Below are positions 1 through 61,636 of a stretch of DNA of 64,000 nucleotides, one piece after another. The stretch comes from Torpedo marmorata (lineage: Eukaryota), in NCBI GenBank assembly GCA_977017645.1, contig OZ360229.1, forward strand, positions 87,916,001 to 87,980,000. The letters are read 5' to 3'. The stretch's first letter is position 1. Every line of letters starts with the position of its first letter. The notes below the pieces were generated by a model that was not told the origin of the DNA, did not search any database, and was given only the letters and a program-made list of their open reading frames with translations. Made by a program: the position numbers and the translations under genes.

Positions 1-35
1 CGAGAGGGGTACGGCGGAAGCAAGATAGCAAGAAA
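1..35 (-). CDS. Candidate exon of an unidentified host gene, running off the window start
   Basis: Minus strand has a strong polypyrimidine tract and acceptor (ttttctccttgattttctctctcgccttgttcag) followed by CpG-containing sequence. One open frame reads FLLSCFRRTPL and is phase-compatible with the 19-nt exon at 228-246. Confidence 0.55.
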
Positions 36-227
36 CTGAACAAGGCGAGAGAGAAAATCAAGGAGAAAATTAAGATCAAACTCATTCTGCACAATGTTCA
101 GTTTAACAGAGTTGTTCAGAAATAGTTATTCCAATAAAGTTCTTAACCCTTTAACGTGTTGGAAAAAAATGCAAATGCATTTACACCATACAGTGAATAT
201 TAAATACAAAAATCAAGATGAATTTAC

Positions 228-246
228 CTAGTCACATTCTTCTGCT
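228..246 (-). CDS. Candidate 19-nt microexon
   Basis: Minus: atttcccatttcag|AGCAGAAGAATGTGACTAG|gtaaat, with a 192-nt intron to the next acceptor at 36-37. Confidence 0.5.
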
Positions 247-469
247 CTGAAATGGGAAATTTTAGATCAAGATGAGGAGAATAATTTAGCTCAAAGATGC
301 ACAATGAAAGGCAATGATGATAACTACACTGGTATCAAAACATATCCCCTGGCATTATTTTTGCATTGGATACAATGACAAGAGAATGGGACACAGAATA
401 AAACATTGCTGCCAATGTATCACAGTATATAATCTTGTTTTTTTTAAGGCCACATGAGTACATTGGACT

Positions 470-770
470 AGTGGCGTAGCTAGTAGAACTGCTGCCTCAA
501 GGCTGCAGTCTCCCAGGTTCAATCCTGACCTTGGGTGATAGCCGTGGAGTCTTCCTGTGACAAGTGTGCTTCCCGCAGATGCCTCGGCTTCCACCCCCCT
601 CCCACCATTTCAAACGTCATGCAGGTCGCGTAGGCTCCATAGTGACTGAATTGCTCCTGTTGTGTAGGAGAGTGGCAGCTCATAGGAATGTAGAAAGATT
701 GAAATGGGATTAGTGTGAGTGAGTGATCAGTGTGTCAGAGGCCGTTTCCATGCTGTCTCTCTCTCTCGAT
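470..770 (+). mobile_element. tRNA-derived SINE (HE1/V-SINE-like), decayed
   Basis: A-box-like gtggcgtagct, B-box-like ggttcaatcc, conserved central domain and a CR1-like tail (ccgtttccatgctgt). Confidence 0.7.
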
Positions 771-2459
771 GTAACCCGAGGTTGATTCAAGGTTAGCGAG
801 TCGCTTCTTTTGAAGAAACCCAACAGACTGGTCACGTTTCCCCCAAAATCCTCACCTGATCAACTCTGAACTCTGCTTAGGAACAAACACTATTTTAATC
901 AAATTCCTTCATTATTACTTCGAGAGGAAAGGATGCCAACCTGATGGTTTTTTTTCATTGTGATCGTTCTAGTATGATTCCAGTAAACCTGAAATCCATG
1001 GGAATATGAGGAAGAGTTCCTGGACCTTGATATTAGGCTTGGTGCAACAAGATCATTGTACAGTTGCAAACATGCTTCAAAATTGCACCAATAAACTTTT
1101 TTAAAAATAAAGATTGGACTCTCACTCAATTATCTCAGATACCTCGCATCAGAGAACAACTGACTTGTGCTGATTTTTCACTCAAGCCAAGCAGCTCACT
1201 CACTAAAATCTTTGCAAATCTGAAGGAATGTTAACCTAGAAACACATGTTCAGTAATTCAATAGAAGAGAGGAGGTCATGGCCGCATACTGAAATCCACT
1301 GGAAATCGATGACCATAATCCACCAGCTCCAACCAGCCTGAGCACCTCCAAGTGAGAACTCCTCCAGTGACATGCATCATAGAGCCATCCCAAAACTCCA
1401 GACAAGCCTCCAATTTCCCCAAGCTATCACTTTCCATCTGCCAGGAATGGAATCGTACCCTTAAAGCTGCACCCCAAAGAACAGTGCTTCCAAAGGAGAA
1501 GGGGGAGAACCTCAGGACAGGAGAACAGACCCAATAAATAGTGGCCAATTTGCCCTCGACCCCTTGGCTTGAGAGAGGGGAGGGTTTGTTTGCCAAATCA
1601 CAACGCTGTCACCCACCCAAGTCACACAATTCCATGCTGTGGAAGAAAACCTTCCCAGCGGATTGAGGGGTTAACAAGCTAGCAGTCACGTTTGACACCA
1701 ACAATAAATCCATAATTTATGTCTTCAAAACATATGTTTGAACACCTCATTTCTAAATTTAAGAGGCACACATACTCGTAAATCTCAGTTTCATTTCAAA
1801 CGAAAGCAGATTACAGCCGTGTGTTATTGAGCAGTAATAGAGTTGGCCAGATAAATCAGTCGGCTTTAAACCCACGCTGATCAATCTGCTATATATAATT
1901 CCTCCTGGGCTCTTGGTGCTGTGCAGTCAACTGCCTTCTGTGCTTCTAGGGTGCAGAAATAATAAAAATAAATTTATTGGATGACTCGGCCAACCATTGT
2001 TTATTCCCTGCACAGGCTTTCTCCCCAACTAAACATATGTCCCAAATCAGAAATAAGGGGCAGTAGAAAAATCAAGCAAGTCTCTAATATATACAATAAA
2101 ACCCCTGGTATCCAGTACCTATGGGGATTGGTAGATACCAGATAAGCGAGTTTTTCGGTTGCTTTTTAAAAAAAAATATTTTATTTAAAATTTTTAAATC
2201 ACACAGTACATAGTTTAAAATGCAAAATTATCAAATTACATGTGATACATTTTCACCCCCCCCTCCCTCCCCTCCCGAAAAGAAAGAAAGAAAGAAAGAA
2301 AAAGATAAAGTAAGGAGAATGTCAATCTAAAAAAGAACAACTGTAAACTAATTTTATTGTGGAACACAGGTTCGCCAGTCAGATCCGATATCCAGAGATC
2401 TTCAAATCCCTAAACCGACAGTTTTTATATACGGGTTCCATATTTTCAAAAAGAAATGA

Positions 2460-3091
2460 TTCATTCTACATGGTATTGTCCAAAGATTCAAGTTTTTTGG
2501 TTGAAAGTTTAAAAAAAACTTTAGATAAAATATTTAATATTACATTTCCAATGGATCCTATGTTATTTTTATTTGGAGATATTAAAAAATTTAGTATTAA
2601 AAAGAAATTAAATATGTTTCAAGTAGAATTTTTACGAATTGCTTTAGCTGTTTCGAAAAAATGCATTGCTATTACTTGGAAATCTGATTTAGATTTAGGA
2701 TTAGAAAGATGGCATGCAGAGCTCCGTTCGTGTATACCACTGGAAAAAATTACTTATAATTTACGTAATAAATATCATTTCTTCTTGAAAATTTGGAGCC
2801 CATATATGAGAGCTGTGGGTTTAAGGATCTGAAGATCTCTAGATATCGGATCTACTGGCATATTTGACCTCCGTAATAGAATTAGTTTATAGATGATATT
2901 CCCCTTATTCTATCTTTTTCTTTCTTTCTTTTTTCTATTTTTACTTTTATTTTATATTACTAGATTAGTGGGGATGGGGGGGGGTTGGGGAGGGAAGGTG
3001 GGGGGGTGAAAATGTATCACATGTATTTTGATAATTTTATATTTTATCTTATGTATTTTGTGATTTAAAAGTTTAAATAAAATAAAATAAA
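2460..3091 (+). mobile_element. 5'-truncated 3' end of a second, diverged L1, inverted within the first
   Basis: Encodes the ORF2 C-terminus (HSTWYCPK...FFLKIWSPYMRAVGLRI*), then a G-rich 3'UTR and (taaaa)n tail. It is an imperfect reverse complement of 2165-2460. Confidence 0.88.
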
Positions 3092-3092
3092 T

Positions 3093-5680
3093 TTTAATTG
3101 GGCTGCTTTATAATAATATTGAAAATTAGGAAGTTGTAAACCACCCATTTCATAATTCCAAGTTAATTTCTCCATACCTACTCTAGCCAACTTTCCTTTC
3201 CACAAGAATTTCCTAATAATTAAATTTAAATCTTTAAAGAATTTGAGGAATTTCATAAGGAATTGATTGAAAAAGATATTGAATTCTTGGAAAAACATTT
3301 ATTTTAATACAATTTACCCTTTCTATTAAAGTTATAGGTAAATCCTTCCAACTTTCTAAATCATTTTTAATATTCATAAATAATGGTAAATAATTTAATT
3401 TATATAAATTGGCTAATTTTGTATCTATCTTTATTCCCAAATATTTAATTCCTCGATTTGACCATTTAAATTGTGTAATTTCTTTACATTTATTATAATC
3501 CCCTTGTGTCAATGCCATAATTTCACTTTTATCAGAATTAATCTTATAACCAGAGATTCCCCATTTCTCTCAGTAAACCATTCAATTGTATTAAAATAGT
3601 AATAGGTTTTGTCATATAAATCAATACGTCATCTGAAAATAAACTAATTTTATGCTCTTCATTACCAACTTTAATATCTACAATCTTAATATCCTGTCTA
3701 ATTAATTCTGCTAAAGGTTCTATTGCTAAAATAAACAATGCTGGTGACAAAGGGCATCCTTGTCTGGTTGACCTAGTAAAAGAAAATTTTGAAGAAATTT
3801 GTCCATTTGTAACCACTCTGGCAGAACATTCTTTATATGTAGTTTTAATCCAATTAATAAATGTAGTTCCAAAACCAAATTTTCCCAGTACTTTAAATAA
3901 ATAATTCTACTCTAATCTGTCAAAAGCCTTTTCGGCATCTAATGTTAATACTAATTCCTCTCTCTTTTGTGCCACATTTGCTAAACTAATTAATCTAGCT
4001 ATATTATCTTTTGAATATCTATTCTTAATAAAACCTGCTTGATCTACATGAATTAAATCTGGTAAATATTTAGCCACTCTATTTGCTAAAATTTTCGCCA
4101 TTATCTTATAATCCACATTTAGCAACGAAATTGGTCTGTATGATTCTGTTTTCAACAAATCTATCTTTTTTCGTTATAACTGTTATTATTGCATTTGAAA
4201 AAGTTTCCGGTAGAGAATGAGTTTCCGTTATTTGTTTTAACACCTCCATATAAGGAGGTATCAATAAATCCTTAAATTCCTTATAAAATTCTGATGTGAA
4301 ACAATCCTCCCCCGGAGATTTTCCACTTGTTAACTTCTCTCATCGTAAACGATGAATCTAAAAATTCTTTACTATGAATATTTAACCTAGGCATCTTAAT
4401 TTTAGATAAAAATTCATTAATTTTAGAATCATCTTTATCAGTTTGAGATTTATATAAATTTAAATAAAAAGCCTTGAAAGAATCATTTATTTCTCGCGGT
4501 TTGTATGTTATTTTCTTAGAATTCCTTTTTATAGCCGTTATAGTTCGAGGTTTGTTCTTTCTTTAATTGCCAGGCTAAGACTTTATGAGCTTTCTCCCAA
4601 TTCATAATATCTTTGCTTAGTTCTTTCAATTAATTTTTCCATTTTATATGTTTGTAACGTATTATAATAATTTTTTCTCAATTAAATTTTTCCTCTTTTC
4701 TTCTGATCTCTTTTTTGCAAATCCTTCTCCAAAAACTCAATCTCCTTCTCCAAATTATCCAATTCCTGAATATATTCCTTCTTAATTTTTGCCGAATAAC
4801 TTATTTGACCTCAAATAAGCTTTCAAAGCCTCCCAAATAATAAATTTATTGTCAATGGAATCAGAATTAATCTGTAAAAATTATTGAATTTCTCTTATAT
4901 AATTACAAAAATCCGTTCTTTTCAATAAAGAGGAATTAAATCTCTATCTATATATATTTTTTTCTTTTTCTGGAATTATACATGACATTAATAGAGGCGA
5001 ATGATCAGAAATTATTCTTGCCTTATATTGCGCTTGGGTCACCCTATCTTCTAATTGTGATGACAGTAAAAACATGTCTATTCTAGAGTAAGAATCATGT
5101 CTAATAAAAGGAATAATCTTTTTCTCTCGGATTCAACTTCCTCCAAATATCAATTAAATTCAAATCTTTCATCAAAGTAAGAATTCTTTTAGCAGTTTTA
5201 GTTCTAATAGTTGATTTCGATGTTTTATCCATTATTGGATCTAAACAACAATTGAAATCTCTACCAATTAAAATATTATCATTTGCTTCTGACAAATGCA
5301 TAAAGGAATCTTGAATAAATTGTTCATCTTGCATATTTGGCACATATATATTCATAAGTGTCCACATTTCTGAATATATCTGAGAGTTTATTAAGACATA
5401 TCTTACTGACACATCTGTAACCACTGATTGTATTTTAAAGGGTAACTTTTTATTAATTAATATAGCAACTCCTTTTGCTTTAGAATTAAATGAAGACGCT
5501 ACCACTTGACCAACCCATTCTCTTTTCAACTTCTGATGTTCTAAATCTGTCAAATCCGTCTCGTAAAAAAGCTATATCTACATTCAACTTTTTAATATAT
5601 GCTAAAGTTTTCTTCCTTTCAATCAGATGATTTAGCCCATTTATATTAATACTTACTACATTTATTAATTTACTATCCGA
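3093..5680 (-). pseudogene. L1 ORF2 (APE endonuclease + RT), frameshifted and truncated
   Basis: Endonuclease motifs (ININGLN, GVAILI, RDFN); RT motifs YRPISLLNVDYK, LDAEKAFD, RQGCPLSP, LFSDD, IKYLGI. Confidence 0.92.
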
Positions 5681-5954
5681 AATTTCTAATATTTAATAAC
5701 TCTCTCTCCATCAGACCCGCCAGTTCCCCCTTCCACATTTGTAATCTATTTGACATCTCCTTAGAAAGAAAAAGAAATAAAAAGAAAAAGAAAAAACTAA
5801 AAAGCCCACTGTATATAATACTGGTAAATTTACACCAGTACTACCACCCTCCATTGCTCGGGAAGTGGCCCTCGCCATGAAGATGACGTGTGACTAGGTA
5901 CGAAGACGACAAAAAGTCCACCTCCCCCCAAACAGATTTTCCAAAACATTTGTT

Positions 5955-7386
5955 ATCATTTCTTCATCCAGCTTGTTCGAGATCTCTATTAACTTGATCC
6001 TCATCGATTACGACCACATTCTCTTGTCCTGAAGCTCTTGGTGAAAGCAGTTCCTGAGTCAGTAGAGTAACTTAATATTGCCCCAAAAAGTCTTGATCTT
6101 TCTTTAATTCCGGAAGTAAATTTGCTTGCTGCAAAGCTTCTTGATAGTCAGTGAAAAAGAATGATTGATTATCTGCAGACTGTACCTTCAATGTCACAGG
6201 ATATCTAAATAAAAATTTATATCCTTTACTCCACAAAACTGCTTTCGCTGGATTAAATTCTTTGTTTTTTTATTATTGCCGTACTCAAATCAGCATAAAA
6301 AATACCCTATTTTTATCAATCATCAATGGACCATTATACTTTTTTGCATTTTGAACAGCTAATTTCAATATCATCTCTTTATCCTGGTATCGAAGACATC
6401 TAATTAAAACTGAACGTGGCCTTTGACCAGGATACGGTTTCCTTCTATGATCTCTATGAGCTCTATCTAATTCAAGTCCATTTGGAAAATGATCAGTACC
6501 CAAAGTCTCTGGAATCCATTTTTGAAAAAATATAGTTGAATTCATCCCTTCAAAATCTTCGGGTAGTCCCACGATCTTAACATTATTTCTCTGACTCTGA
6601 TTCTCCAATACATCTATTTTTTGTAAAAGTTCCTTTCTTTGTAATTCCCAACCTGTAAATGAGTCTTCCACTTTTTCCACTCTATCTTTGCAGTCCACCA
6701 TTTCTTCATAGTGTTCTTTAACATCCTCTTCAATTTTTTGGACCTTCAATGTTACTTTGTCCACAATATTTGTATATTTTTTCATATCTTGTTTAATATC
6801 TTTCATTTCTTCCTTAACTTCATTAAATCCATGTTGCATACGTTAATTCAATATTGACATTTGGTTTGCTATTTTGTCCATAGCTTGAATAAATGTCACT
6901 GATAATTCTTGTTTACCTTGAAGTATTTGAGTCTCCTCTTCTCCACTTATTTCTTCTTGCTCCTCTCCCTCCATCTCTTGTATCCCTCCTTCCAATTCTT
7001 CATATTTCTTCCTCTCTTTTATCTTCTGACTCTGTTGATGATGATAGTTCTTGTCCAGCTTCATAACGATATAAGTGAGAGACTTTTCCTCTACTGTCAG
7101 CCTTAGCTGACAGTTCCCGATATTTATCGCGCATGCGCAGTCGTTCCGTCTGAAGTTGTAGTTCCTTAGTCTTTCTTTGAGCACCAGCGCCATCTTCCCC
7201 AGCTCCCCGGGAGGACGGTACTGGAGCTGCAATTACCTTCACCGCCCTTGTCTGCATCTTCCTGGGGGGCAGAGGAACCTGATCCCGAGGCTCCATCGCT
7301 AAGGTAGGCCGATCTTCCACTTGAATTAAACTTTCTTTAAACACTGTTTTCTTTAACTTTTGCTCCTTCCCTTTTCTAGTGGACAT
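5955..7386 (-). pseudogene. L1 ORF1 (coiled coil + RRM), frameshifted
   Basis: ORF pieces 7000-7386, 6843-7232 and 6285-6839 contain LENQSQRNNVKIVGLPE, LDRAHR and PRSVLIRCLRYQDKE, typical of L1 ORF1p. Confidence 0.88.
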
Positions 7387-8909
7387 TCTTCAATCGTTAA
7401 TAAACAATCTTAACTTTTTTTAATAACTAAATAAGTTTTTTTCCAGGTTTTAATTAGTTCTGTAGGGAGAGGTGTATTTTCACGTCTCCAACCTACACCA
7501 TCACGCCATGCCCCTCCATTTTTTGGTTGCTTGAGACTGGGTGTTGCATGAATGGAGAACTAGCGACGAGCGTGCCAATTTTAAACCCGCATTTTTTACT
7601 GCGATATTTTTGCTGGTTGCTTGAGGTTGTCGATTGCTTGGATTCCAGATAACAGGGATTTTACTGTACTTGCAAGAGGCTCATCGTGTAGGCAAAGAAA
7701 TTCTCAAACCACACCCAAAAAATAGTTTGAGGCAAGATAATGTTCATTTTCCGTCACTGTTCCAAATGCTTGCAATTTATTGGTTATTCTAAATTCTCAT
7801 CTCAGACATAATCTGCACTTACCAAGAGATAGCTTTGGCTCTATGTTTTTATCTCCAAAACCCTCCTCGAGAACACAGCTCAATGTCCAACATTATCATT
7901 TATTTAAACCCTGTGATATTCTTTACTGCTGCAATTACTCAAGTCAATAACCAATTTTATACCCTTTTATAACCTTATCTCCAGCAGATTTCCTCTACAA
8001 CACAAAAGTCACTACAAATTCAAAAGAATTTTAATGGCTGTAAAGTATCTTGAGATTGTTAAAATATCATGTACGCAATGACAAAATGGGATTAAGAATG
8101 AGGGAATGTGCAGAAAGACTGGAAAACAGATCCTACATGGAAACCATCCTAGGAATCAGAACTACCAGCTGCTATAACTCACCAGCCCCCACCCTCTGCG
8201 CTATCCCCTAATCAAAATCTTAAACATCCAAATCAGATTACTTCTTCGACAAGTGAATACCAAACCATCTTATGCAAGTTAACTCCTTCAGATACCACAA
8301 TGTAATTGGGTTCTTTTCCCCATCGTGTTGTCACATTAAGCAACTTGGGTTGATTCCTGTGCTGGTCACAACCAAGAGGAGGAGGAACAACTATATATTA
8401 AAATGCTGAAGATTTCACCAGCTGGGTGTTAAGTTTTGAGGACTTGGTAAAGTACGAGCTTCAGGAAGGAGATATACATACTACAAATAATTCTCCTCAA
8501 TCACTTCTGAAAGTAACTAAGTGGGAGCTAATTTGCTTAATCTTCTGTAATATAGCTACCTTCTATAAACTGCAGTTTTGAGAAACATTCCTGCTTTTAT
8601 GAGGAAACTGTTTTAAGTTTAAGAATTCAGAGACACCAGTGGACTAATTGGAAGTGCTGCCCTTGTATCCAACTTCTTGGACTCAACAATGCCCTCAATA
8701 TTCACTCCGCTGCATAGAATCTCGCTCCAACAAAAGGATACAAAATACAAAGAATCGCATTCTGTAACATCTTTTCCTTTCATCTTTTTCCATCCATGGT
8801 CCTCCGGTCTTTGCCCTAAAGTTTCCAACCCTTCCCTGCATTCAAAATAAAATTAGTAACCACTGCTTAAAACTTTCTGCACCAAAGCACTGCATCCAAT
8901 TATACTCAC

Positions 8910-13072: not shown

Positions 13073-13108
<36 letters not shown>

Positions 13109-14199: not shown

Positions 14200-15200
14200 C
14201 AGGACACACTATCCCAACTTGCAAACGCATTGCATTCCTTCAACGTCACTGCAGCCAGTTCCTGGAATGTTCTGCTCAAAAACACTGTGGGACCACCATT
14301 AGAAAAAGGCTGCAGCCTTTCGAGGTGGCAGGTCACCAGCACCTTCTGAGCTGATTGTTGACTTCAGAAAGGGAAAACCAGATGTGTACGATCCAGTGAT
14401 CATTGGGGGATCAGAGGCAGAGAGGGTGAGCAAATTTACAGTAAGTTCTTGAAAGTCACTATCTCAGAGGATCTTTCCTGAACAACACACAAATGGCATC
14501 GTGAAGAAAGCACATCAGCGCCTCTACTTCCTCGGGAGTTTTCGGAGGTTTGGTATGACATCGGAAACCCTGGCAAGTTTCTACAGATGGGTGGTGGAAA
14601 GTGTGCTGACCGGCTTCATCACGGTCTGGTATGGGGACACCAATACCCCTGAGCGTAAAGCCCTGCAAAAGGTAGTGGACACAGCCCAGGGCATCACAGG
14701 CAAAACCCTCCCCACTATTGAGTACATCTACAGGGAACGCTGCCGTCGGAGGGCAGCAGCAATCATCAAGGATACGCACCACCCACCACGCGCTCTGTTC
14801 TCGCTGCCAACATCAGGAAAGAGGTATAGGTGCCCGAAGACACTCACCACCAGGTTCAGGAACAACTGCTACCCCTCCACCATCAGACTCCTCATCAACA
14901 AACTCAATCAGGGACTTGTTTAAGGACTCTTACTTTTGCACTTTATTGATTTTTTTCTCTCTCTGTATTGCACAGTTTATTTACATTTCTTTATTTGTTT
15001 ACGTGTAAGTTGAGTCTGTTTTTTTTGCACTGCCAATAAGTGGTAATTCTGCCTTGCCCGCAGGAAAAAGAATCTCAGGGTTGTATGTGATATCATGTAC
15101 TCTGACAATAAATCTGAAATCGGAATCTGAAATCTTCTCGAAGATAATTAGGGAGAGGCAACAAATGCCCCGGTCAGGCCAGTGATGCTGACAACCCAAT
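14200..15200 (+). mobile_element. CR1-like tail interrupted by a Rex1/Babar copy
   Basis: Host tail ...caccagcaccttct | cttctcgaagataattaggga...; cttct occurs at both junctions. Confidence 0.55.
14349..15133 (+). mobile_element. Rex1/Babar LINE, 5'-truncated
   Basis: ELIVDFRK...KKAHQRLYFL...YPSTIRLL C-terminus, AATAAA and an (aatctga)n tail. Confidence 0.88.
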
Positions 15201-15759
15201 TAAAAAAATGTTGCTCCGTGGCTGCACAGATTTTTTGTTTTGTTAACCAATTCACATAGCCACATCACTGACTGCAAGTCAATGCATGTTAATGGGGAAT
15301 TATATATAACGCTGCAAGGAGAAACAGTATCAAATAAAAATGAATCTGTTAAAGTCATTGAATTAGCAATAAAGCAATTTGTCTTTTCTTTCTCAAAAAT
15401 ACTATTCTAGAAATGCTGTAGGCTTACCTTTCTGAATATACTCATTTTGTCAGTCTTAACTCAAGATTTATGGGTCTCGTGGACCCATTTAATTGTGGCA
15501 GGGAACATTTAAAACATTAGGTTGATGTTTGCAATCCTGTTATCAGAGACCAAACATGCTATTAACTGTTCAGTGAACTAAGGCCTACTTTGGCAAGCGA
15601 CTTCATCTAATTGGAGAAATCTTGCACAGACAAACAGCAGCACGAGTGAAGTAAGCTTGTCACAAAAGTCTGGTCGAGTTTTAAAAAGACAAATTAACCC
15701 TCAAATAACAGTTAGCAGCATCACTGCCTAATGCACAACCACCTTAATACATGGAACAA

Positions 15760-15890
15760 GTATAACACCAACATCTGCAGACACAGTGGTTGAAGTCAAA
15801 ACACAATGCGAGAGAAACTCAGCAGGTCAAACAGTGTACTTTATGTAGCAAAGATAAAGGTACAGAACCAACGTTTCGGGCTTGAGCCCT
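15760..15890 (-). mobile_element. Penelope-like terminal fragment with 12-bp TSD
   Basis: gagaaactcagcaggtc...aacgtttcgggcttgagccct, flanked by TACATGGAACAA at 15748-15759 and 15891-15902. Confidence 0.72.
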
Positions 15891-15902
15891 TACATGGAAC
15901 AA

Positions 15903-16550
15903 TCCAGCACAGGAACAGACTGTAGCTCTTGATGTCTGTCCCCAACTAGCTGCTAAAGTAAACCAAATCTCTTCTGCCTGCACACAATCCATATCCCTCC
16001 ATTCCCTGTATATTCATGAGTCTATCTAAAAGTCTTTTAAATGCTACCATCACTACTCATGGCACCCCATTAAAAGCCCCCACCACTCTATATAATTGCC
16101 ACGCACATCACCTTTAAACTTTCACATCCTCCCACTTCAAATGCACTTGCCATTCTTATCCTGGGAAAAACATTCTGTCCACCTCACCTATGCCTCTCAT
16201 ATAAATCTCCCGGAGGACTCCAAATCACACTGCTTGGAAACAGGCCCTTCAGCCAGAGTCTGCAACAATCAAGAACCCATTTATACTAATGCCAATTAAT
16301 TCTGCCCAGATTCCCATCAACTTCCTCCAGATTCCACCTGTCACGCACCAAGGTGAGCTTTCAGTGACCAATTAACCTACCAGCCTGCATGCCTTTTGGG
16401 ATGAGGGGGGAAACTGGAGCACCCAGAGCAGACCCACGCAGTCACGGAGAATGTGTAAACTCTGCAGTCAGCAGCAGAGGTCAGGATCTAAACTGGCTCG
16501 GTCGAACAGTATGGCGGCAGCTCTTCTTGCTGTGCCTCCGTGCTACTCTT
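15903..16550 (-). mobile_element. tRNA-SINE followed directly by a CR1 3' fragment (composite)
   Basis: SINE body at about 16230-16550 (gagcacccagagcagacccacgcagtcacggagaatg) abuts a CR1 tail at about 15903-16210 in the same orientation. Confidence 0.7.
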
Positions 16551-16898
16551 GCACGAACCAGTTTGGAGAATTTCAGTAAGCTACCAAAAAACTAGGGAAG
16601 TGGATGGAAAGAAGAATGCTCCAGGTCGTAATGTGCACTCGTCAATAAATGGGCATCAAGAAGTGAGAATCTAGCTGAACAAAAAGGAGAAGTGAAACAA
16701 ATATTCAACTGACGAGGTCAGAGGGGGAAGACTATAAACTAAATAGTCAGGAGTTCCATTTCCCTATATTCTGTGCAATAAATAAAATTAGACCAGAGCT
16801 CAATTCCCACCCAAAATTTAAACAACTTAACTCACAGCTGAGAACCACTTCAGATCAGATTCTATTTATTTTCATGTAATAAAACAGAAATGTAATAT

Positions 16899-17226
16899 TG
16901 TAGCGGCCCGCAGGCCGATCGGCGACCCGCGACACAAGATGGCGACCGAACGCAGCGATCGCAACAAGGCCACGAACTAAATGGCCTTCCTACAGGGGAT
17001 CCAGCTCCGACTGTAAAACCAGCGACCGGCACATGACGTCATTCCCCTGGCGGGAAAACCAACCAATCAGCGGTCGGCCCATGATGTCATCTCGGCTGGA
17101 AGAGGCGGGTCTCACCCGGGAGCTGGCCCGATATAAGCAGAGCCAGAACCTCAATAAAGTCAGTCCTGTTTGAGCTAACCTGAAGTGCAGTGGTGTTCTT
17201 TCCGACGCGGCAGCCGCAGCGCTACA
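16899..17226 (+). repeat. 5' LTR (328 bp)
   Basis: TGTAGCG...CGCTACA with CCAAT, TATAA and AATAAA; homologous to 20950-21257. Confidence 0.97.
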
Positions 17227-17227
17227 G

Positions 17228-17241
17228 TGGTGACCCTGATG
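17228..17241 (+). promoter_or_regulatory. Primer-binding site (tRNA-Trp)
   Basis: TGGTGACCCTGATG matches the tRNA-Trp PBS TGGTGACCCCGACG apart from two CpG-type C>T changes. Confidence 0.85.
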
Positions 17242-17272
17242 GGTCTGAACGGCATTTTTGGACCTGAAGACG

Positions 17273-20200
17273 ATGGACCAGGCTACCATCCACGCAGTCG
17301 CTCTGAAGCATCCGACCTTTAGGACGACACAGCCACAGGTCTGGTCTGAGCAAGCCGAGGCTCAGTTTGAGATTCGCCAGATCTCCTCCGACGCCACACA
17401 CTACCACTACGTGGTCAGCTCGCTAGTTCAGGACACAGCGGCCAGAATCGTCAATTTCCTCCGGCACCCACCAGGGCAAGAGAAGTATGAGGCCATTAAA
17501 GAGCTACTAACCCGCACCTTCAGGCTCTCGAAGCGTGAGCGCGCGGCCCGATTGTTGCACAGATTGGGGGACAGGGCCCCATCCATCCTCATGGGCGAGA
17601 TGTTAGTGCTCGCTGACGGCCATACACCTTGCCTGCTCTTCGAGCAGATCTTCTTAGACCTGTTGCCAGAGAATATCCAATTGCTGCTGGCAGACGACGA
17701 CTTCAGCGACCCCAGGAAGGCGGCAGCCCAGGCAGACGTGCTCTGGAAGTCGAAGAGGCACTCCGACGTCGTGGTGGAGCACGTCGCCCAGCCCCACGTA
17801 TAGCAAGCGACAAGGCCGCCGGCCACACGCGACAGGCACACGGATCCCGCGGGTGAGCAGTGCTGTTTCTACCACCAGCGATGGGGTGCGGAGCCCGCCG
17901 ATGCCGCCAACCCTGCACTTTCCCGGGAAACGCCATGGCCGGCCGTCGTTAATAGCTGAGGCAGTTGGCCAACAAGACAGCCTGCTCCACGTGTGGGATT
18001 CCCTGTCTGGACGGCGGTTCTTGGTCGACACCGGAGCCGAAGACAGCGTCCTGCCCCCCTCGGCACATGACATCCACAACAAACGGCCGGGGCCATCTTT
18101 GAGAGCAGCAAACTGTTCCACAATAAAGACGTTCGGCACGCGTACCGTGCCGCTTCGTTTCAGCAACAGCCGGTTCACATGGTCTTTTACACTCGCCGCA
18201 GTGGAACGACCACTCCTGGGGGCTGATTTCCTCAGGGCTCATTGCTTGTTGGTAGATCTCAAGGGGCAAAGGCTGGTCCACGCCAAAACCTTCCAGTCCT
18301 TCACCCTGGGGAAAGCCGGGTTACCCGCCCCCCCACCTCCATTCCGTCACTGCCGACCGCTATGAATTCTCGCGGAATTCCCATCCATCGCGGTACCGCA
18401 GTTCACCTCCGCCGAGCCCAAACATGGGGTTAAGCACCACATCCTCACGGCGGGCCCTCCCCTCCACGCCAGGGCACGTCGCCTTCCTCCTGATAAACTA
18501 AGCTTAGCCAAAAAAAGAGTTCCTAAAGATGGAGGAGCTGGGGATCGTGCGCAGGTCCGACAGCCCCTGGGCATCCCCCCACACATGGTGCCGAAGACGG
18601 CAGGAGGGTGGAGACTACCGGCGCTTGAACGAGGCAACCACGCCAGACCGATACCCCGTGCCCCATATACAGGACTTCACTGCAAACTTACAGGGGCACG
18701 GGTCTTCTCCAAGGTTGACCTCATCAGAGGCTACCACCAGATACCGGTCAACCCTGAGGACAGAGGTAAAACCACCTTCATAACCCCCTTTAGTTTGTTT
18801 GAGTTCCTGAGAATGCCCTTCGGCCTAAAGAACGCTGCTCAAACATTCCAGAGGATGATGGACAGGGTGGGCTGGGACCTCGATTTCATTTTCATCTACC
18901 TCGATGACATACTGGTGGCCAGCCGCAACCACAAAGAACATGCGACGCACATACGGCAGCTGTGCTCCCGCCTGAGATTTTGGCCTGACCATCAAACTGG
19001 CCAAATGCCAGTTCGGGCTAGAGACTATCGACTTCCTGGGCCACAGAATAAATAAACACGGGGCGACCCCGCTACGAGAAGGTAGAGGCTGTCAGGCGCT
19101 TCACCAAGCCATACACAGTGATGGGCCTCCAGGAGTTTGGCGGTATGATCAACTTTTACCACCATTTCATACCGGTAGCAACCCACATCATGCGCCCGTT
19201 ATTCGCCGTGATGGCTGGCAAAAAGAAAGAGGTGGAGTGGGACAAGGAGGCTTCGGAAGTGTTCCAGAAGGTCAAGGATGCCCTGGCCAACGCTACACTT
19301 CTGGTACACCCACGAACAGACGCCCCGACCACCCTCACAACAGACGCCTCCAACACAGCGGTCGCAGGGGTGCTGGAGCAGCTAGTAAACGGACAATGGC
19401 AGCACTTAGCTCTTTTCAGAAGGCATCTGCGGGCACCCAAGCTCAAGTACAGTGCTTTGAACCGCGAACTGCTAGCCCTGTACCTGGCAGTACGACACTT
19501 CTGATACTTTCTAGAGGGCAGACAATTTATGATCTTCACCGATCACAAACCGCTGACTTTCGCTTTCAACAAAGTATCAGACCCATGGTCGGCCAGACAA
19601 CAAAGGCACCTATCCTACATATCCGAGTTTACCACAGATATCCAGCATATCGACGGAAAGGCTCACGTGGTGGCTGACGCTTTATCACGCCCTACAATCC
19701 AGGTGATACAGACATTGTCCCAAGGGGTCGATTTCACAGTATTGGCCCGAGCACAGCTGCAAGACCCTGAGATTCCCACTTACAGAACGGCGGTAACAGG
19801 TCTAACACTGAAGGACATCGCAATCGGGCCCGGCAACCAGACGCTACTCTGCGACGTGTCAACGGGGAAACCCCGCCCCATCGTCCCCACGGCATGGAGA
19901 CGTCCAGTGTTCGACACGGTGCATAACCTGGTGCACCCATCCATCAGAACCACGGTCAAGATGGTAGCCAACAGGTCCATGTGGCACGGTCTCCGAAAAG
20001 TCAGCCAGTGGGCAAAGACCTGCACACACTGCCAGACGTCTAAAGTACAGACGCATGTCAAGGCGCCCCCACCCCCAAGCATTTGAGCCAGCATGGTGGA
20101 GATTCAGCCATGTCCACATCGACATCATGGGCTAGCTGCCAGTATCAAGAGGGGCATGGTACCTATTGACTATGGTAGACGGGCGTACGAGGTGGCCGGA

Positions 20201-20900
20201 AGCAGTTCCACTGGCAGAGACCTCAACAGGGACGTGCCAGAGCCTTCATCGACACATGGGTGGCTCGATTCGGTGTCCCGGAACACCAGACGTCTGACAG
20301 AGGTGCGCAGTTCACTTCTGGACTTTGGGCAGCCATGGCCAACCTATTGGGAACCCAGCTCCACCACACCACAGCTTACCACCCACAGGCCAACGGGTTG
20401 GTGGAGCGGTTCAACCATCACCTGAGGTCAGCACTGATGGCCTGCCTCAAAGGTCCACACTGGACCAACGAACTACCGTGGGTACTACTGGGAATCCGGA
20501 CTGCGCCCAAAGAAGACCTCGACGCCTCGGCAGCAGAATTGGTGTACAGCACCTAGTTATCCCTGGAGAGCTCCTGGCCACCCCCAAAGGCACAGACGAT
20601 ACACCGGCAGCAACCCTCGAAAGGCTCCGAGAGCGACTGGGGACACTGGCCCCATCACAGCCCACACCGCACGGCCATCCAAAGACATGCCCAGGGGCTT
20701 ACTCGACTGCAGGTTCATTTTCGTGCGACGAGGAGCACATTGTCCACCGCTGCAACGTCCTTACGAGGGGCCCTACAGGGTGATATGGCACAACGGGTCC
20801 ACACGTGCTGGACATTGGAGGCAAGGCAGAGACATTCACTTTAGTCCGCCTTTAGCCAGCACACATCGACACCAGCCCCACGGCGCAGAGGCAGGCCACC
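17273..20900 (+). pseudogene. Gypsy gag-pol with stops and frameshifts
   Basis: Gag with a CHCC-type knuckle (CFYHQRWG...C...C across a frameshift), protease FLVDTGA, RT MPFGLKNA/YLDD, RNase H TDAS/TDHKPL, integrase HHCC, SDRGAQF, NGLVER and GPY motif. Confidence 0.95.
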
Positions 20901-20935
20901 GAAAGCACGGGTCGCTGCCACGATCGGCGGTTCTT

Positions 20936-20947
20936 GGGGGGGGGAGA
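20936..20947 (+). promoter_or_regulatory. Polypurine tract
   Basis: GGGGGGGGGAGA just upstream of the 3' LTR. Confidence 0.85.
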
Positions 20948-20949
20948 CG

Positions 20950-21257
20950 TGTAGCGGCCCGCAGGCCGATCGGCGACCCGCGACGCAACAAGGCCACGAA
21001 CTAAATAGCCATCCTACAGGGGATCCAGCTCCGACGGGAAAACTAGCCAACCAGCGACCGGCACATGATGTCATTCCCCTGGCGGGAAAACCGACCAAGC
21101 AGCAGTCAGCCCGTGACGTCATCTCGGCCGGAAGAGGCGGGTCTCACCTGGGAGCTGCCCCTATATAAGCAGAGCCAGAACCTCAATAAAGCAGTCCTGT
21201 TTGAGCTAACCTGAAGTGCAGTGGTGTTCTTTCCGACGCAGCATCCGCAGCGCTACA
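20950..21257 (+). repeat. 3' LTR (308 bp)
   Basis: Relative to the 5' LTR: a 27-bp deletion, an 8-bp insertion and about 17 substitutions (hand count). Confidence 0.97.
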
Positions 21258-21660
21258 ATATTACACAAAATTGCCTTTAGTCTGCCAGAAGGCAGACAAA
21301 GATTTGTCATTAGCATTGCCCGGCACCCCACAAGGCAGACATAGATTCTCCATTAGCATATGCATTGCTCGGCACTCCTAACAGACAGAGAAAGAGAAGC
21401 AAAAGAGAGTCTCCCCCAGAGTCACCGAGTGTCCGTGGATTCATTGAGCACTCTCGCAGCCTCTGCAGCCGTTCAAGATCCCAGTTTAGTTCAAACCTTC
21501 GGCAACATGAGCCCAGATTAAAAGCTCCAACACGATGAGGAAGCCTTCAGCGCCCAGGGCCCTTCGGGAGCCCTCCTTGCCCTCAGCATCCTCTCGAATC
21601 CCAGTTCCGATACCTGGTTCTCATGAGTCAGTCTCCAGCAGCCCACAGCCAGAACAAGTC
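21258..21660 (-). mobile_element. Non-coding retroposon with Rex-like tail, host of the Gypsy insertion (tail at about 16851-16898)
   Basis: The rejoined sequence matches the reverse complement of 38320-38600 and also matches about 22020-22132. Confidence 0.75.
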
Positions 21661-22132
21661 CTTTGACACTTGCACGATGATTATAAAAAGAGTGTACCCA
21701 GAGAAATAAGTCAGCCCCAGTCAAGGGAGAGAAAAAAAAAACTGGCAATCAAAACTGTTTAGTAGTAGGGATCCATTTTGAATAAGGCCACAAGTGGTGA
21801 CAAGATTATAACCAGCCAGAATGGAGGTGACTGGTTAATTATTTCGTCAATCAAACTTGGTAAGCAACTGAGATTGATTTGATGCACACACTTGTGGAAC
21901 AATCTTCCATTTACTATTTTTTTTCTGGAAGAAATGGTCCTGTTTTTGCTGAGACATTGTAGTTTGTATTCTCTGCTCTATGCGACTTACTAAGCAAATT
22001 TTCTTTTCATTGCCTGGCATCCATTAGAGAAAGAGAAGCAAAAGAGAATTCCCCAGTCACCGAATGTCCGTGGATTCGCCTCCAGCGCTCCCGCACAAGT
22101 CTCCAGTTCAGTTTAAACCACAGGCACTCGGC

Positions 22133-22497: not shown

Positions 22498-23140
22498 CAG
22501 AAAATTCAACAGCAGAAAGCAGGGTGTTCTCAAGACCACTGGATGACTGGAACAGAGACAGGAGGTGCATGATCCTGTATCGGCCCAATTTACAGCAAGG
22601 AGACAGACCAGAGCTGTGGAATTTCCCTTCCCCCAGCCGACTAATTATAGTACCCCAACTGGCCAAGATCAACACAGGCAGAGGGGAACTCATTGTGACA
22701 CAATCTTCATCTGAAAAGCACTAACATGCACTTGGGACAGCCTCTAGAGAGGCATTCTGAGACATTTCAAAACTGCACACTATCAACAGTTAATCAACAG
22801 GGGGCTGGAGAAAGATGTACAACTGCTTCACATCAATACAGTACACTAAACTTAAGGTGCAAGAAAATTTCTAGTTGAGCTCCTTATTTTCCTTTGTATT
22901 GCAAGACATCCACCTTCAGATCTCATCAAAACAAAGTACAAAGGATGTTTACTTAAGACTTAAGAGTTCCAGGCAGTAAAGCTTTTCTCAAGGGAACCAA
23001 TTCTCCATCAGCCCAAGCAGTCTACCAACCATCTGTTCCCATTGGCACTACAAAACAAACAGAACGGAATCCTGTTGGAATATATTAATTTTTTGGAATT
23101 TGCAGCTTCAACTCCCTCTTCTGCTAAACCACCCACTCAC

Positions 23141-23191
23141 AAGTAGCTCCACCAGAGGCTTATGCTTGGCCATCTGCAGTCTCCTCATCAG
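23141..23191 (-). CDS. Candidate 51-nt cassette exon with upstream YCAY cluster
   Basis: Minus: ...gtgttcattcaacctgcag|CTGATG...CTACTT|gtgagtg. Frame 0 reads LMRRLQMAKHKPLVELL, and about 100 nt upstream is AG-free, pyrimidine-rich and rich in TCAT/YCAC. Confidence 0.6.
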
Positions 23192-23994
23192 CTGCAGGTT
23201 GAATGAACACAAAAACGTGTGAACGAATAGAGTAGGTGGATGAATGAAAGCACAAAAGAAATGAATGAACAAAATGATTAAGCAATATTCTCGCAATTAA
23301 CTGCACCCACACTGAACCTGCAACTCTTACTTGCATTGCAATATTTCTGTTCAGGCCTCAGCTCTCAGACTTCTCACGGTTCTTTAAGAATCTAATATTA
23401 GGTCCCACCAACGATACAACCTGCATCAATGGCAAATCAGGCAGCAATGCCTCCGTCATCAGTTTGCTGCAAGTTTACCCAAGACATTTCAGAAAGATAT
23501 AATCAGGCATATATCTTCCCTACAACCAACACCCAGTTGGAACGTGCAGAGAAAAATAACTGTTTAATTTGGCTGTTTGGTAAACGTTGGTGGGGGAAGG
23601 GAGGAACAAAACACATCAAAAGAAAACCTTCGGTCGCAAGAATGTTTGTTTCTCCACCACCCCTCCCTCACTCCCAATGACCCAGTTGGCTGTGCCCAGG
23701 AACAACTATCATTATTGTTCTACTCTCCCCAATTACAGCAGAGGTTGCATGCTCCGAGTGAAAATACCCAGAGATTTGGAATTCAACCCGTGTTGGCACC
23801 AGGGAGCTGATGGCTCATTCGATTATTTCAACCTGCATTTAAGCAGGTGATCCAAGAGAGATTTCTAGTCGCGCATCCCTCAGCTCATTGCTTCTCAATC
23901 GTGTGCTAAACACCCCTGAACGTTCTGCTGTTCTGGGTTGTTTCAGCCAGGGGAATTGGGGAGGGGGTGGATGATGCAATTTTTCAGTTGTACA

Positions 23995-54165: not shown

Positions 54166-54214
54166 GCCATAGACTGGTCTATCAGTTAAATGGTGAAAAA
54201 TCACAGCATACTGT

Positions 54215-55392: not shown

Positions 55393-58300
55393 AAAATATT
55401 TAGCAGGTTTGACAATTCCACCCGAGGATGGTTTGGGGCGACGTCCAAGTTATGGCAGACTTTGCTCCTAAACGGAAGGCATCCAGTCAAGGAGAACAAA
55501 CCAAGTTCCTGAGAGAGTGACCAAACACACACTCCACTGTGATCGTGCAGTAACTCGCTTTGACTGAGCAAATAGCAAGGACGAGTGAGTCCACCCAGAG
55601 AATATGCAATTGGCATCACTGGGGGGCTTACAAAAGTAGTTTGCATCATAAAAAAGTGTTACCTCTTCCCATCTCATCACCACCTCTTCTGTGAATGCAT
55701 TATAAAATAAAGTTTGAATAATAGGCTCACTTTCCCCCTTCCTCAGTCATGCTCCACCCCAGTTTCCTCACCCTTGCTGATTCTGCCCAAATCTTTTGCC
55801 ATAATCAAAAGCCTCTGAAATTTATCCTCCATTTCTTCCCCTCACATTCACAACGTCCCATGTGTTCTTGCATCGCAATTCACCCGTAATGCATCATTAC
55901 TAGTGAACACATTTCCCCCAGAACCTCATCAGTATCAACTCTATTCCTCAATATTTCTTTTGCCTTTTAACCTATGGGAGGAGACAACCAATCAGTCCTT
56001 TAAGTCAACTAAATCACAGCTGATGTGCACATCTTTATCGGATAGATTAGTTCAGATTAACTCAACAGCCCTCATTATCCTTACTTAACCTATCAGTCCT
56101 CCCCTCACATGAAGCTAACCTCCACTGCTATCGGCCTGCCTGGTCAGGAGCACTTACTTGGATTACAAGCTGCTGATAATTGCTGGCTTTCAGATCCAAG
56201 AAATGGTACACACATGCACGCTTTCTATCCCCTCACGCAAGGAGGAATGTAAATATTGGACACCTGCCAGAAAAACTAAAATTCAACCAGAAACGCTATG
56301 AAAGCAGTGGCCTGATGTACAAACACTGCAAGTGTCAATGATTTCACAGCCATTCAGGCAGGGTGTTGTAAATGGGGCAAAGAACTCAAAGACTTAGGAT
56401 AACACGAATTGAGGAAAGAATAAAATCCCGCAGAACTGTGTGACTTTAATTCCCTAGATTCCAATGGCAGAGTTATAGCCTCCAATATTTATCTACAAGT
56501 CTTCACAATATTGTTAAGCTTTTTTTTTCTACCCCCCAAACCTAAAAATTCCAGGGACTTTTCATCGTCACAGCTTCTATATTAAGACCCTTAAGTCTCA
56601 TTATTTATAATAATGCAAAGGTATATTTTAGTATACCCCTTTCACATCTGTTTCAGTCAACAAACCGTAAATCATCCATTAGTCAGCAGATTAATCATTG
56701 TGCATTAATGTTTCAATACCAAATCAAGAAGCAATTTCACACTAAACCATTTGCCACCACAATATAAAGCTTTGCTTAAGAAACAGCCAATGAGAGTCCC
56801 TTTCCTTGTCTTTTAGTCGAGATAGTAACAACTAGTATTTATATGGATCTTTCAATGTAGTAAAGACTCCTGTGTCACTTCACAGAACTGTTACCAAATA
56901 AAATGTGATACTCAGCCACATAATTAGACATTTATCATTGGTGAAAGAGATAGGTTCAGAAACAGAAGGAAAGACTCAAGGAGCAGATTCCAGAACTTGG
57001 GACCTTAGCAGCTGAAGGAACTGACATCAATGATGAAATTATTAAAACTCGGGGCAGCTCAAGAGGTGGTGGTTGGAAGAGGGAGCAGAGATCTCACAGG
57101 ATGGGAGAAGGGAACCAAAATAGGGATGTATTGAAACCACAGGATAAATTGAAAATAACAAGGACACCCTCACCAACACACTGGCTCATTACAGGCAGGA
57201 ATGTGGAAATACATTGAAATAAGTTAAAAATCAACATTCCTGACTTTTTAAAAATACTCAGAGTCTTTGAAGCTGACGTTAGCCCAGCAGAAACCTGACC
57301 TAATACGATGGCAGAAGTGGGAAGAAATCAGTCTTTAATCCCTGGTAGCAGAAATATCAGACCATTCAATCTCATTCAATTTCAGTGGAGTCAAAAGAAT
57401 CAAGAATGCAAAAGGCAGTGACAATCAGCAGCAAATGTCCTCTTTCACATTTAGCAGTAGCAACCACAGAAATTTCTAGTCCAACATACTTTGAGCTGCT
57501 GCTAAGATGCCACAGTAGCAGAGAGATGAGAAAGCAGAAAAGTCAGGATTGGTTTGCAGGAAGTTAAACAAACATCAAAAAAAACAGCAGCATCAGGAAT
57601 TAGGGTTAAAAAAAGTTGAGATACAACCCAAAAGATTGATAGTTACCCTTTTCAGGCTGGCTGCAGTTATTTCATGATTAGTCGGGTTATTACATGATTA
57701 GCCTCGTCTGAATTAATTTGCGATCTAGCACTAACCAGGAAAACAGTTTTGAAAAGAATGACACAGTCCAGGACTGCCTAGAATGAATAGAATAATCAAA
57801 TTCACACAGGAAGCCAGCACTTACCAGGCCCTTCATTCTAACACACATAACCCTGTGTTGTATCTGGAAGCAATTACACAGAGTTAAACATGATCTAGCT
57901 TCAATCTGCCTTCCACTGAAATTAGTCCGAAGAAATATTTTAAACATTTGTAAAAGGAGATGGCAGGGTCTGTGCAGACTGCCTGGCTAAGTTTACTAAT
58001 TTGCCACTCAAAACAATTCCACATGCAAACTTCTGCATAGTTGCCCAAATTTTAACAGATCTTCACAGGTAGATTTTGACCAATTAGAAGTATCTGAAAG
58101 TAACATTTAAGCAAAGGAATTTTTTTTATGAAACTGCCCACACTCAAATAAACAACCTGCCACTACAATCTCAGTGTCCAAACATTGACCAAGAGTTTTT
58201 TCCACTCGCTATTTAAAGATCTTGATTTAATTTTCTGAAAAGCCTTTTCTTCAGTTAAAATGAACCAATGTTCTTAAATATCTACCAATTCAATTACTGT

Positions 58301-60404
58301 AAAAATAAATTTTACTTACTAATTTAAAACTGGTGCTACTTTGTTTCAGAAATAAAACTCGTTCAGAAAATTGAGGCTTTTCTTTTATGAACTTTTACCT
58401 TGCACTCCTGTAATTTAATAAAAGCAGAAGCATTTCATTGAAGTTTCAAGTGAACATATTTAAGAGAGATTCAATACTACAAGTGTACAAAATATTGTTA
58501 CCTATATGCACTGTGAGCCTGGCAAAAGAATGGGGGAAATAAACAAGTCAGCAGAATGAACACATTATATAGCAGGTTACAGAACAACAGTCATAATCCA
58601 ATTCAAAAGATTTCTTCGAAGAAGAAACTAAACTGAACCAAGTGGAAGTGAGGTCATTTTATCCCAATGTTGCTGGTGAGAAACTCTGGCAGTCCAAACC
58701 CACTCACCACCTGGTTTTATTTTTCATTGGTTTAACTGAAAAATCATGTTGAGTCAAATTAAAATGTGCTGTTATCAATTAATTTCAGAAGAAAAATCAT
58801 TGGCAGACTTGTGATCCTCTGATTCTGTGGTGAGGGATAAAGTTTTGAATGCTGGGCAGATTATGGTAAACACAAACCATGTATTAGAATTCATTCCAAC
58901 CCAAGTGGACCAGAATTCCCCTTTTCCAAGATCAAGCTGCCGCAGCCATCCATGATGCGATCCATCACCATTGTGCAGAAAAATACTCATCTGAAAATAA
59001 TTCTTCATTGAATTGTGAGCAATTAGTTCACAGTATGATCGGAGGTCATTGTTTTTCTGCTAGTTCTTCATGAGCCACCCAATTCTATTCCTACTCTGAC
59101 TGCTTTTATTAAAAAAATAGCTCGTTGACAATTAGATTATATTGGCAGGCTAATGTGAAATATTTGGTGTCTTTGCCAATTACCCAAGAAAATAAACAAA
59201 AGCTACTTAATCCACACAACTACCATGTTTAGAAAGATTGGGGTTGGAATAAATTATTAGAGTTTATCACATCTGTCCACCATTCCAAGCACAGTGAACC
59301 ACTGTGTATAGTTGGTATTGTGATACAAACAAACCTGGTCGCAATGTTGTGTATCAAGACCCCAACTAATGAAGGACCTCCATCTACGAGTTAATCTGTC
59401 ATTTTCTTTTGGTCATTGATAGCCTTTAATATTTTTTAAAAAAAAGATAGGTTGGTGAACAAAAAGATCACTGATGCTCAAGGAAGTTTAATCTCACCGC
59501 ATCACCGTATTCTTTTATTCCCCTTTCACGACAGATTTTTCTACCATCCCTTAACTGAACTTCTATTCACCCAATTACTTCTTGTAGTAATAAGCTTCAG
59601 GTTAACTTTATTCCAGCACTTTTTATTTATCTTTATACATTTGGTATATACTTAAGTTTTACAGTAACCCTTTTAGAAGGGGTAAATGGACTTGTGGAAC
59701 ATCAACATACATGGTTGAGAAGAGGCAAGCAGAGCACAAGGCTGCATCTTGCTTCCAACACCATTAAAAATGCCTTCGGGTTAAGAACCCACGCAACAAT
59801 TCTGTGTGATTGCAAGATCAACAATATACCAGGCCAGAACTGTGACACAGATTATCTACTCGAGTAATCTACTGTCATTTATGGATTCAAACCACATTTG
59901 TGCACATCAGCATTCTTTGGAGGAGAAAGGGTGAGAGAGAAAAAATACAAGAGACATAACCATCGGAAATAATCCTGCATTGAAATTCATAATAAAAGTT
60001 AGGCAAAATTCCATTGGATTCACTACTATGCTCTTAAATTAAACTACCCATTTTAAAATAAACACCTCAAGTTCCTTGTAGGAGGAATAAATCAGAGGTC
60101 ACAAACTTATTTCTTGCCAAAGGAATGTCAATCTGTAGACTTTTTGTTAACCTCGGGACTCAAGACAAGAACCAGAGTAGCAGAAATCCCAAGTGTGTTG
60201 ACAGAGGTCTTTCCAATGAGCAGGGGTTACACGAGCAGGTCAAGATCTTGTGCCTTACTGCAGCACTCATTTCCTGAGCAGCCCAGGATCTTCCAGCAAT
60301 AAAGCTAATGGGACTTCCTAGCATGGCATGTTCAGACTGACAGAGCTGTCTGTCACTGGTCATGAAGAGGGGAAGTGCTGGTTTCGATTAGGAGGTTACA
60401 TTAC

Positions 60405-60413
60405 CAGGTGCCA
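60405..60413 (-). CDS. Candidate 9-nt microexon
   Basis: Minus: branch-like tttaac, about 85 nt pyrimidine tract, then cttattag|TGGCACCTG|gtaatg; frame-preserving. Confidence 0.55.
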
Positions 60414-61636
60414 CTAATAAGCTCAAGAATAAAAGAGGATCAAATGGCAGTGGGGGTGGAGGAAAAGGGGAGAGGGCAAGAGGAACAGACAGACAGAAAG
60501 ATAAGTGGGTTAAATACATTCCTCTAAGAAATTTACTTAAAATATGGAAACTATATTCAGAGGGTGCCCAAATAGAATGGGCAAAACAGCTCCCATAAGG
60601 CACTGCTTTCTTCAGCCAAATGCAGATGCATTTTAATTTGTAATCTGCCACAGCAACCGGCACATGGAAGGACAAAACCAAACAGAAGCAGCATCACACA
60701 GCATTCAAGGCAACCGCTTCACTCCTTACGCCTTTGCTGCATCTTTGAATCTTTCCCTTCACTCTCACACCTCTCTGCTCATTCCTTGAATCCCATCATT
60801 TTACTCCCTACCCCTTTTCCCAGCAATTCTTTCAAGTTATTAAACCTTCATTGAGCATCCTTTAAAAATAAAACTCAGGTGCTACGAGCCAGGATGCTCT
60901 GCTCTAAAGATTTATGCACTTAACTTTTCAAGCAGTAGGAACTCATTATTTCCTTGGCCAACAGAGGTCAGGTGCCAAATATTAACCCCTCCTTCCCTCT
61001 CAACTCAGATTTTCTTTTTTTTAAAATGTCAGCTACACAAATTTTGTACTGCTAGGCTTGTTTAGGCTTCAAGTCCACATAACTCCCTAGTTTAAATCTC
61101 AGAATTATTTGAGATGCTATCCTGATGGCATATTCACACAGTACAACTGCATTGTGAATATGCAGGTAAAGGAGGCCATTCAGCCTCTCAAGCCAATGCT
61201 GCCATTGGATGCTATAGAAAGTTTGGATAGCATTGACTGGGTATTCACACTGGTGAAACTGGACACTGCCAGATACAACATCGCACTCACATTATGGAGT
61301 GGAAATTAGTCCTCGTTTGCCAATGTTAAACTCCTATTGTAGCAGCTTCTGCACTTCTATTCTGCTTGAGACTCTGTGAACTGTGACATTGGGCATCGAG
61401 GTCAGCTTCTGATCTCTCCACATCCAGAATCACACGAGGACAATGCTGCTCATGCCAAGATTTATCTCTTGGTAACTGTACAAACTGAATTCCAGTTTTA
61501 TCACTCCTGACAAAAATGTATATGAATAATATTCCCAATGGTCTTAACCGAAAAACTGCTCTATATAATTTAGCAGCAAGTAGATCAAATAAGAATTTTA
61601 GTTCCATCCAATGCAAGTTGGTTAGTCAGCTTCAGA

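Follow-up and report, generated by a model that had tools for sequence, protein, structure and literature searches.

The window, a 64-kb stretch of Torpedo marmorata DNA (positions 1-64000), is in its entirety part of intron 2 of zbtb16, the gene for PLZF (ZBTB16), on the minus strand. We examined 200 kb of flanking DNA on each side of the window for the host gene. Just past the window end lies a minus-strand reading frame of 408 codons that encodes a BTB domain and a first zinc-finger half; this is zbtb16 exon 2 (66627-67945, minus strand), which extends from the BTB domain to the first half of finger 1. Its BTB domain matches PLZF structures (1BUO, E 1.6e-67), the named matches are ZBTB16, and the exon 2 protein is 94.6% identical to that of the sawfish Pristis pectinata, 91.4% to those of two rays and 85.7-90.2% to those of sharks. 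Five exons follow at about -19.8, -71.9, -142.8, -175.7 and -177.7 kb, negative coordinates lying before the window. The first of these, exon 3, is 98 nt long (-19889 to -19792, minus strand). Exons 3-7 contain eight finger patterns, which together with the split finger 1 give nine C2H2 fingers over six coding exons. The BTB domain, exon number and finger number are those of known ZBTB16/PLZF, and we found nothing unusual in the protein. An exact look-up of the exon 2 frame gave no identical entry in the protein collection searched. Intron 2 measures 86,417 nt in full and interrupts finger 1 in phase 2; the end of exon 2 at 66627 falls between the two histidines of that finger. The original prediction, which saw the letters of the window alone, had proposed a large minus-strand gene with no ordinary-sized coding exon in the window and had left the naming of the gene to the neighboring DNA. 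All of this holds: zbtb16 exons lie on both sides, and the nearest ones, exon 2 and exon 3, are both outside the window. At the exon 4 acceptor, about -71800, a tandem CAGCAG explains the one-residue isoform pairs in the sawshark and Mobula gene models.

About one third of the window is self-similar repeat, including reverse-transcriptase and integrase remnants. A broken LTR-retrotransposon with reverse transcriptase, RNase H and integrase zinc-binding domains occupies about 15700-21700 on the plus strand. LINE remnants lie at 2079-7672 on the minus strand and at 14453-14920, 23910-24752 and 61489-62926 on the plus strand, the latter three with RVT_1 and/or ALKBH8_N Pfam matches. Beyond the window, two long open frames of an LTR retroelement (251 and 1070 codons) are found at 249239-253204 on the plus strand, and a 196-nt exon-like segment at 190369-190564, upstream of zbtb16 and on the opposite strand, presumably encodes an immunoglobulin V-type domain. 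Rfam returned no match to a known structured RNA in the window.

To establish how intron 2 is normally spliced, we compared 238 homologous proteins, 181 of which span the exon 2-exon 3 junction; of the remainder, 48 end short of exon 3 (in one of them our pattern overlooked a direct join) and 9 lack the finger pattern. Exon 2 is joined straight to exon 3 in 170 of the 181. In the other 11 the junction holds one of six unrelated inserts, 16-75 residues long, and no insert of 2-15 residues occurs among the 181, a count to be read with the caveat that gene models can miss microexons. Contigs from three runs in three studies (closest 99.3% identity, tissue unspecified) diverge from the genome at the exon 2 donor. 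Their next base is G, the base with which exon 3 starts, and one contig continues for 97+1 = 98 letters past exon 2, a length from which we take the continuation to be exon 3. The direct joins in homologues, the following G and the 98-letter extension together indicate that joining of exon 2 to exon 3 is the default. For the main cluster of sharks and rays, 16 of 52 members were compared, 4 of them unrelated 49-residue entries, so that an insert-free sawshark isoform or further inserts may be hidden there. Tortoise, whale and rhinoceros gene models also show unrelated inserts at this junction; mapping these inserts to the window intron gave nothing convincing (rhinoceros, E 0.013, weak). Human isoform X2 ends three residues past the junction.

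The original prediction had read eight tiny minus-strand segments as alternatively spliced microexons that make up a variable region and possibly give several short C-termini. All eight segments are indeed preceded by AG and followed by GT, the donor of 1-35 being a weak GTATCT. They had further been presented as the best splice-site pairs outside the repeats, and here the claim fails. Using a simple weight matrix of general splice-site frequencies, not trained on this genome, the eight picks score from -1.4 to 6.3, compared with 10.8-11.9 for three true zbtb16 exons (three of the six coding exons were scored). In 42,486 unmasked bases, the score of the weakest pick is reached by 449 minus-strand pairs of 3-51 nt, against 403±29 in 20 shuffles and 274 on the plus strand; that of the best pick is reached by 12 pairs, against 14±2.7 in shuffles and 9 on the plus strand. 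Since neural microexons are reported to combine weak acceptors with a pyrimidine tract in a shifted position, at lengths of 3-27 nt (bioRxiv 10.64898/2026.01.16.699960), we also applied a microexon-tuned filter (pyrimidine fraction of at least 0.7 at -45 to -16, donor score of at least 1.8, 3-27 nt). It retains 8 minus-strand donors versus 2.5-3.4 after shuffling (a count of 8 was reached in 0 and in 1 of 30 shuffles), a mild excess, and 5 on the plus strand. When the donor has to be as strong as in true exons, none is left on the minus strand and two on the plus strand.

Upstream UGC motifs and extended pyrimidine tracts had been cited as features of such microexons; both occur together in two of the eight picks, each a 32-nt frame-shifter. 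UGC is present at -20 to -3 in two picks and at -30 to -3 in three. In phase 2, a stop occurs inside three picks, four more shift the frame, and the 9-nt pick alone stays open. The peptide obtained by joining 228-246 to 1-35 is not in the PLZF frame, in which 228-246 ends in a stop, and in a script comparison its pieces shared nothing beyond chance 4-mers with the homologue junctions. Any insert at this position would moreover come between the two histidines of finger 1. A microexon array thus has in its favor the intact AG and GT dinucleotides, the mild minus-strand excess under one filter, and the position of the 9-nt and 51-nt picks in stretches that are better conserved than their neighbors in one relative; chance-level scores, frame disruption in seven of eight picks and the missing short inserts in 181 homologues stand against it. 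We consider an array of eight picks to be very improbable and not supported, and the picks other than 23141-23191 are likely pseudo-exons.

Two of the picks lie in sequence that is of interest for other reasons. The 9-nt pick (60405-60413, minus strand) has a long pyrimidine tract, modest sites and no UGC close to its acceptor. In DNA of the relative, the surrounding 616 nt (60000-60616) differ at 21 positions, compared with 51 of 727 next door, and are about as conserved as exon 2 (21/616 versus 48/1322); judging from this comparison, 60000-60616 is probably another constrained element. The 51-nt pick (23141-23191, minus strand), YCAY-rich upstream, has fared both ways: it overlaps a conserved element that is used as an exon in sawshark gene models, but it meets two immediate stops in the PLZF frame. 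Sawshark models X1 and X2, both of which were compared, contain a 16-residue insert at the exon 2-exon 3 junction, and within the 86-kb intron this insert matches significantly at one place, 23160-23207 on the minus strand under the 51-nt pick (11/14 identical, E 1.2e-6; 34.1 bits versus a maximum of 23.5 in 300 shuffles). The stretch has a single match in the genome. A search confined to the insert region gave the sawshark query alone, and among the best 120 of 291 proteins in a search with the wider region, none was a second protein with the sawshark insert. Over 22500-23900, the contigs of three runs leave the 51-nt pick uncovered, which counts neither for nor against it.

The positions equivalent to the acceptor and donor of the sawshark exon are not AG and GT in the window. 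In the relative's DNA, a 281-nt core shows 6 differences versus 53 of 837 in its flanks (p 0.005, with boundaries chosen afterwards and on the assumption that 20 unshown rows fall beyond 23394), the 51-nt pick has the same AG and GT, and the length of the sawshark exon is recovered through a 3-nt insertion. The sequence at 23160-23207 therefore appears to be constrained with turnover of its splice sites. We regard 23141-23207 as likely to be conserved regulatory sequence that was exonised opportunistically, with different sites in the ray and the sawshark; it may alternatively be a second poison cassette.

The strongest candidate exon in the window is a segment that was absent from the eight picks. 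It spans 39 nt at 57825-57863 on the minus strand, between an acceptor TTCCAG and a donor CTG|GTAAGT, and, read in the PLZF frame, offers ten codons followed by TGA. Its splice-pair score of 9.0 is the joint top in the window among the 449 pairs; a 17-nt pair at 856-872 (minus strand) is tied with it. The segment has a single match in the genome. The 3' splice region at 57864-57887 contains TTAAC at -24 to -20, which we take to be branch-point-like, TAATTG, presumably a homeodomain-type motif, and UGC at -9 to -7. Pyrimidines make up 15 of the 30 positions at -45 to -16. Within 700 nt of the element there are two frame-keeping micro-candidates on the minus strand, both with UGC and a pyrimidine-rich upstream region: 58502-58510 (9 nt) and 57490-57501 (6, 9 or 12 nt, with tandem acceptors). 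A further frame-keeping candidate of 15 nt, with UGC, 83% pyrimidines upstream and a strong donor, lies in the same intron at -11671 to -11657 (minus strand).

Conservation of the 39-nt segment was examined with its open reading frame, which we compared with 1.84 billion representative sequences. In six unnamed records the match extends over 37 codons and contains no gap (E 3e-8 to 5e-6), which indicates that the distance from acceptor to donor has been kept. All six are translated sequences that come with neither name nor context, and four of them are distinct. Across all six, 21 of 37 codons are invariant, and the invariance is concentrated on the splice signals: 10 of 11 codons over the branch point, acceptor and donor do not vary, versus 11 of 26 elsewhere (one-sided p 0.007, with zones drawn afterwards). 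In the 3' splice region, 7 of 8 translated codons are invariant, and the UGC codon is Cys in all six records; the Met-Lys pair underlying the TGA is likewise present in 6/6. Downstream of the donor (57777-57824, minus strand), the first three codons are invariant and 8 of 16 overall. The residues of the records (Q at the acceptor, V-S at the donor) are compatible with AG and GT, as far as translations can show. The probability that the top splice pair coincides with the matched element by chance is roughly 0.3% by length ratio, reckoned after the fact. Metagenome matches to the 57.9-kb motif numbered 0 in a first scan and 18 in a second, none extending past about 22-36 nt, and were taken as chance.

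A teleost gene model places the same element in zbtb16. Isoform X2 of killifish zbtb16-A carries a 40-residue insert at the exon 2-exon 3 junction, the last 9 residues of which match 57878-57852 on the minus strand, across the acceptor of the 39-nt segment (8/9; E 7e-5; 0 of 500 shuffles as good; one of 2 matches among 25 inserts and tails tested). The match is on the right strand and ties the element to zbtb16 intron 2 in a teleost. The splice sites of the killifish model differ from those proposed here, forming a longer in-frame exon that ends 11 nt inside the 39-nt segment.

Our preferred reading, to which we give a probability of about 0.5, is that the window is part of zbtb16 intron 2, that the eight picks are at chance level, and that 57825-57863 is a normally skipped poison exon with a stop inside zinc finger 1. 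By default, exon 2 would be joined to exon 3 and the 39-nt segment skipped. Its inclusion, possibly aided by a UGC-binding factor such as SRRM3/4, would introduce the stop well upstream of the last junction, with exons 3-7 still to follow. A stop upstream of exon junctions leads to removal of the message by nonsense-mediated decay, and the five junctions downstream of the predicted stop would expose the zbtb16 message to this fate. Any protein that escaped would consist of the BTB domain and the middle region without an intact finger, and the outcome would be a splicing-level brake on PLZF dose. Stop-bearing microexons that act as negative regulators are an established class, and SRRM3/4 are reported to act via UGC beside weak acceptors (PMC10551640).

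Several observations count against a poison exon. The contigs leave exon 2 with G, the 39-nt exon would start with A, and the main contigs contain no inclusion junction. Among the homologues, 48 have short or odd C-terminal tails, and the predicted ten-codon tail fits none of them. The killifish gene model relies on different sites, and a pyrimidine content of 15/30 is unlike that of typical neural microexons. Furthermore, regulatory sequence that is conserved or open is known in mammalian Zbtb16 intron 2 and could alone explain the conservation.

The last point leads to the main alternative, which we hold to be a credible possibility, if a less than even one: the conserved elements act at the DNA level as zbtb16 enhancers, their splice signals are incidental, the sawshark and killifish exons are leaky cryptic ones, and the window contains no regulated exon. 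In the rat, a 2,964-bp deletion of conserved intronic sequence in intron 2 (PMC5919955) leads to the Lx limb phenotype (PMC5058558). In the mouse, ATAC peaks are abundant in intron 2, and expression of PLZF depends on an intronic enhancer bound by Runx1 (PMC5643357). Like the elements described here, the rat Lx element and the mouse +21/23 Runx1 enhancer are intronic non-coding sequence of Zbtb16 that is conserved or regulatory, and a further Zbtb16 enhancer has been described upstream (PMC11600591). The six unrelated inserts of different lineages are what cryptic exons would give, 23160-23207 has kept its sequence and lost the sites of the sawshark exon, and the TAATTG of the 57.9-kb element, a homeodomain-type motif, would suit an enhancer. 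At 57825-57863, however, invariance is concentrated on the branch point, acceptor and donor rather than on the middle, and the gap-free spacing and the joint-best splice pair of the window likewise argue for splicing.

Strong, conserved-looking splice sites in a very long intron also fit a role in which the 39-nt unit never enters the mature mRNA. Decoy or intermediate splice sites occur in long vertebrate introns, and such a site could aid processing of the 86-kb intron by stepwise removal or by control of its retention. The acceptor in the ray is not followed by an immediate GT, which a classic recursive site needs, and we consider this role quite improbable.

Measured against known systems, the preferred poison exon is of a familiar kind. 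With conserved poison exons (PMC10551640) the candidate shares a short cassette, a premature stop, apparently conserved flanks and a dose-sensitive regulator as host; the best-known cases are in splicing factors, whereas the candidate resides in a developmental transcription factor and its inclusion and NMD sensitivity are predicted. SRRM3/4-dependent neural microexons resemble it in UGC beside a modest acceptor, a strong donor, apparent deep conservation and a length below 51 nt. It differs from them in measuring 39 nt rather than 3-27 nt, in having no extended pyrimidine tract and in supplying a stop instead of added residues (bioRxiv 10.64898/2026.01.16.699960). The splice variants that the covered part of a review lists (PMC3398472) do not include the candidate. 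With respect to the protein, a parallel can be drawn to REST4, a likeness in truncation with no claim of homology. REST exon N, a small neural exon, cuts short a repressor with zinc fingers that acts in progenitors. The REST4 product keeps several fingers and the candidate product would keep none. No mention of REST exon N or REST4 was found in the covered portions of PMC10551640 and PMC6948980.

A broader proposal would be that jawed vertebrates share a UGC-flanked 39-nt ZBTB16 poison microexon, an SRRM3/4-type switch that shuts PLZF off as progenitors become neurons by splitting finger 1, and that sharks and rays add a second finger-breaking cassette with turned-over sites. Loss of PLZF in the chick spinal cord leads to premature neuronal differentiation (PMC3792860), which makes a neural off-switch plausible. 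Taken as a whole, this extension is rather unlikely.

Literature searches at the level of listings yielded no paper on a poison exon in ZBTB16; GENCODE, VastDB or existing poison-exon catalogues may contain an entry for it. In 12 of the 13 supplementary files of PMC12626420 there was no match. Poison exons are a known kind of element, and the 39-nt ZBTB16 candidate is apparently new and testable. PLZF controls progenitor maintenance, and intronic lesions alter limb pattern in the rat (PMC5058558, PMC5919955). Were the element an enhancer only, the finding would be an ordinary one. If the poison exon is real, some of the conservation in intron 2 would reflect splicing and not enhancers, and the element would offer a precise site for deep-intronic variants to act and could be targeted by antisense tuning. 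Shared by rays and teleosts, and probably by other vertebrates, such an exon would then constitute an unrecognised splicing-level control of PLZF dose.
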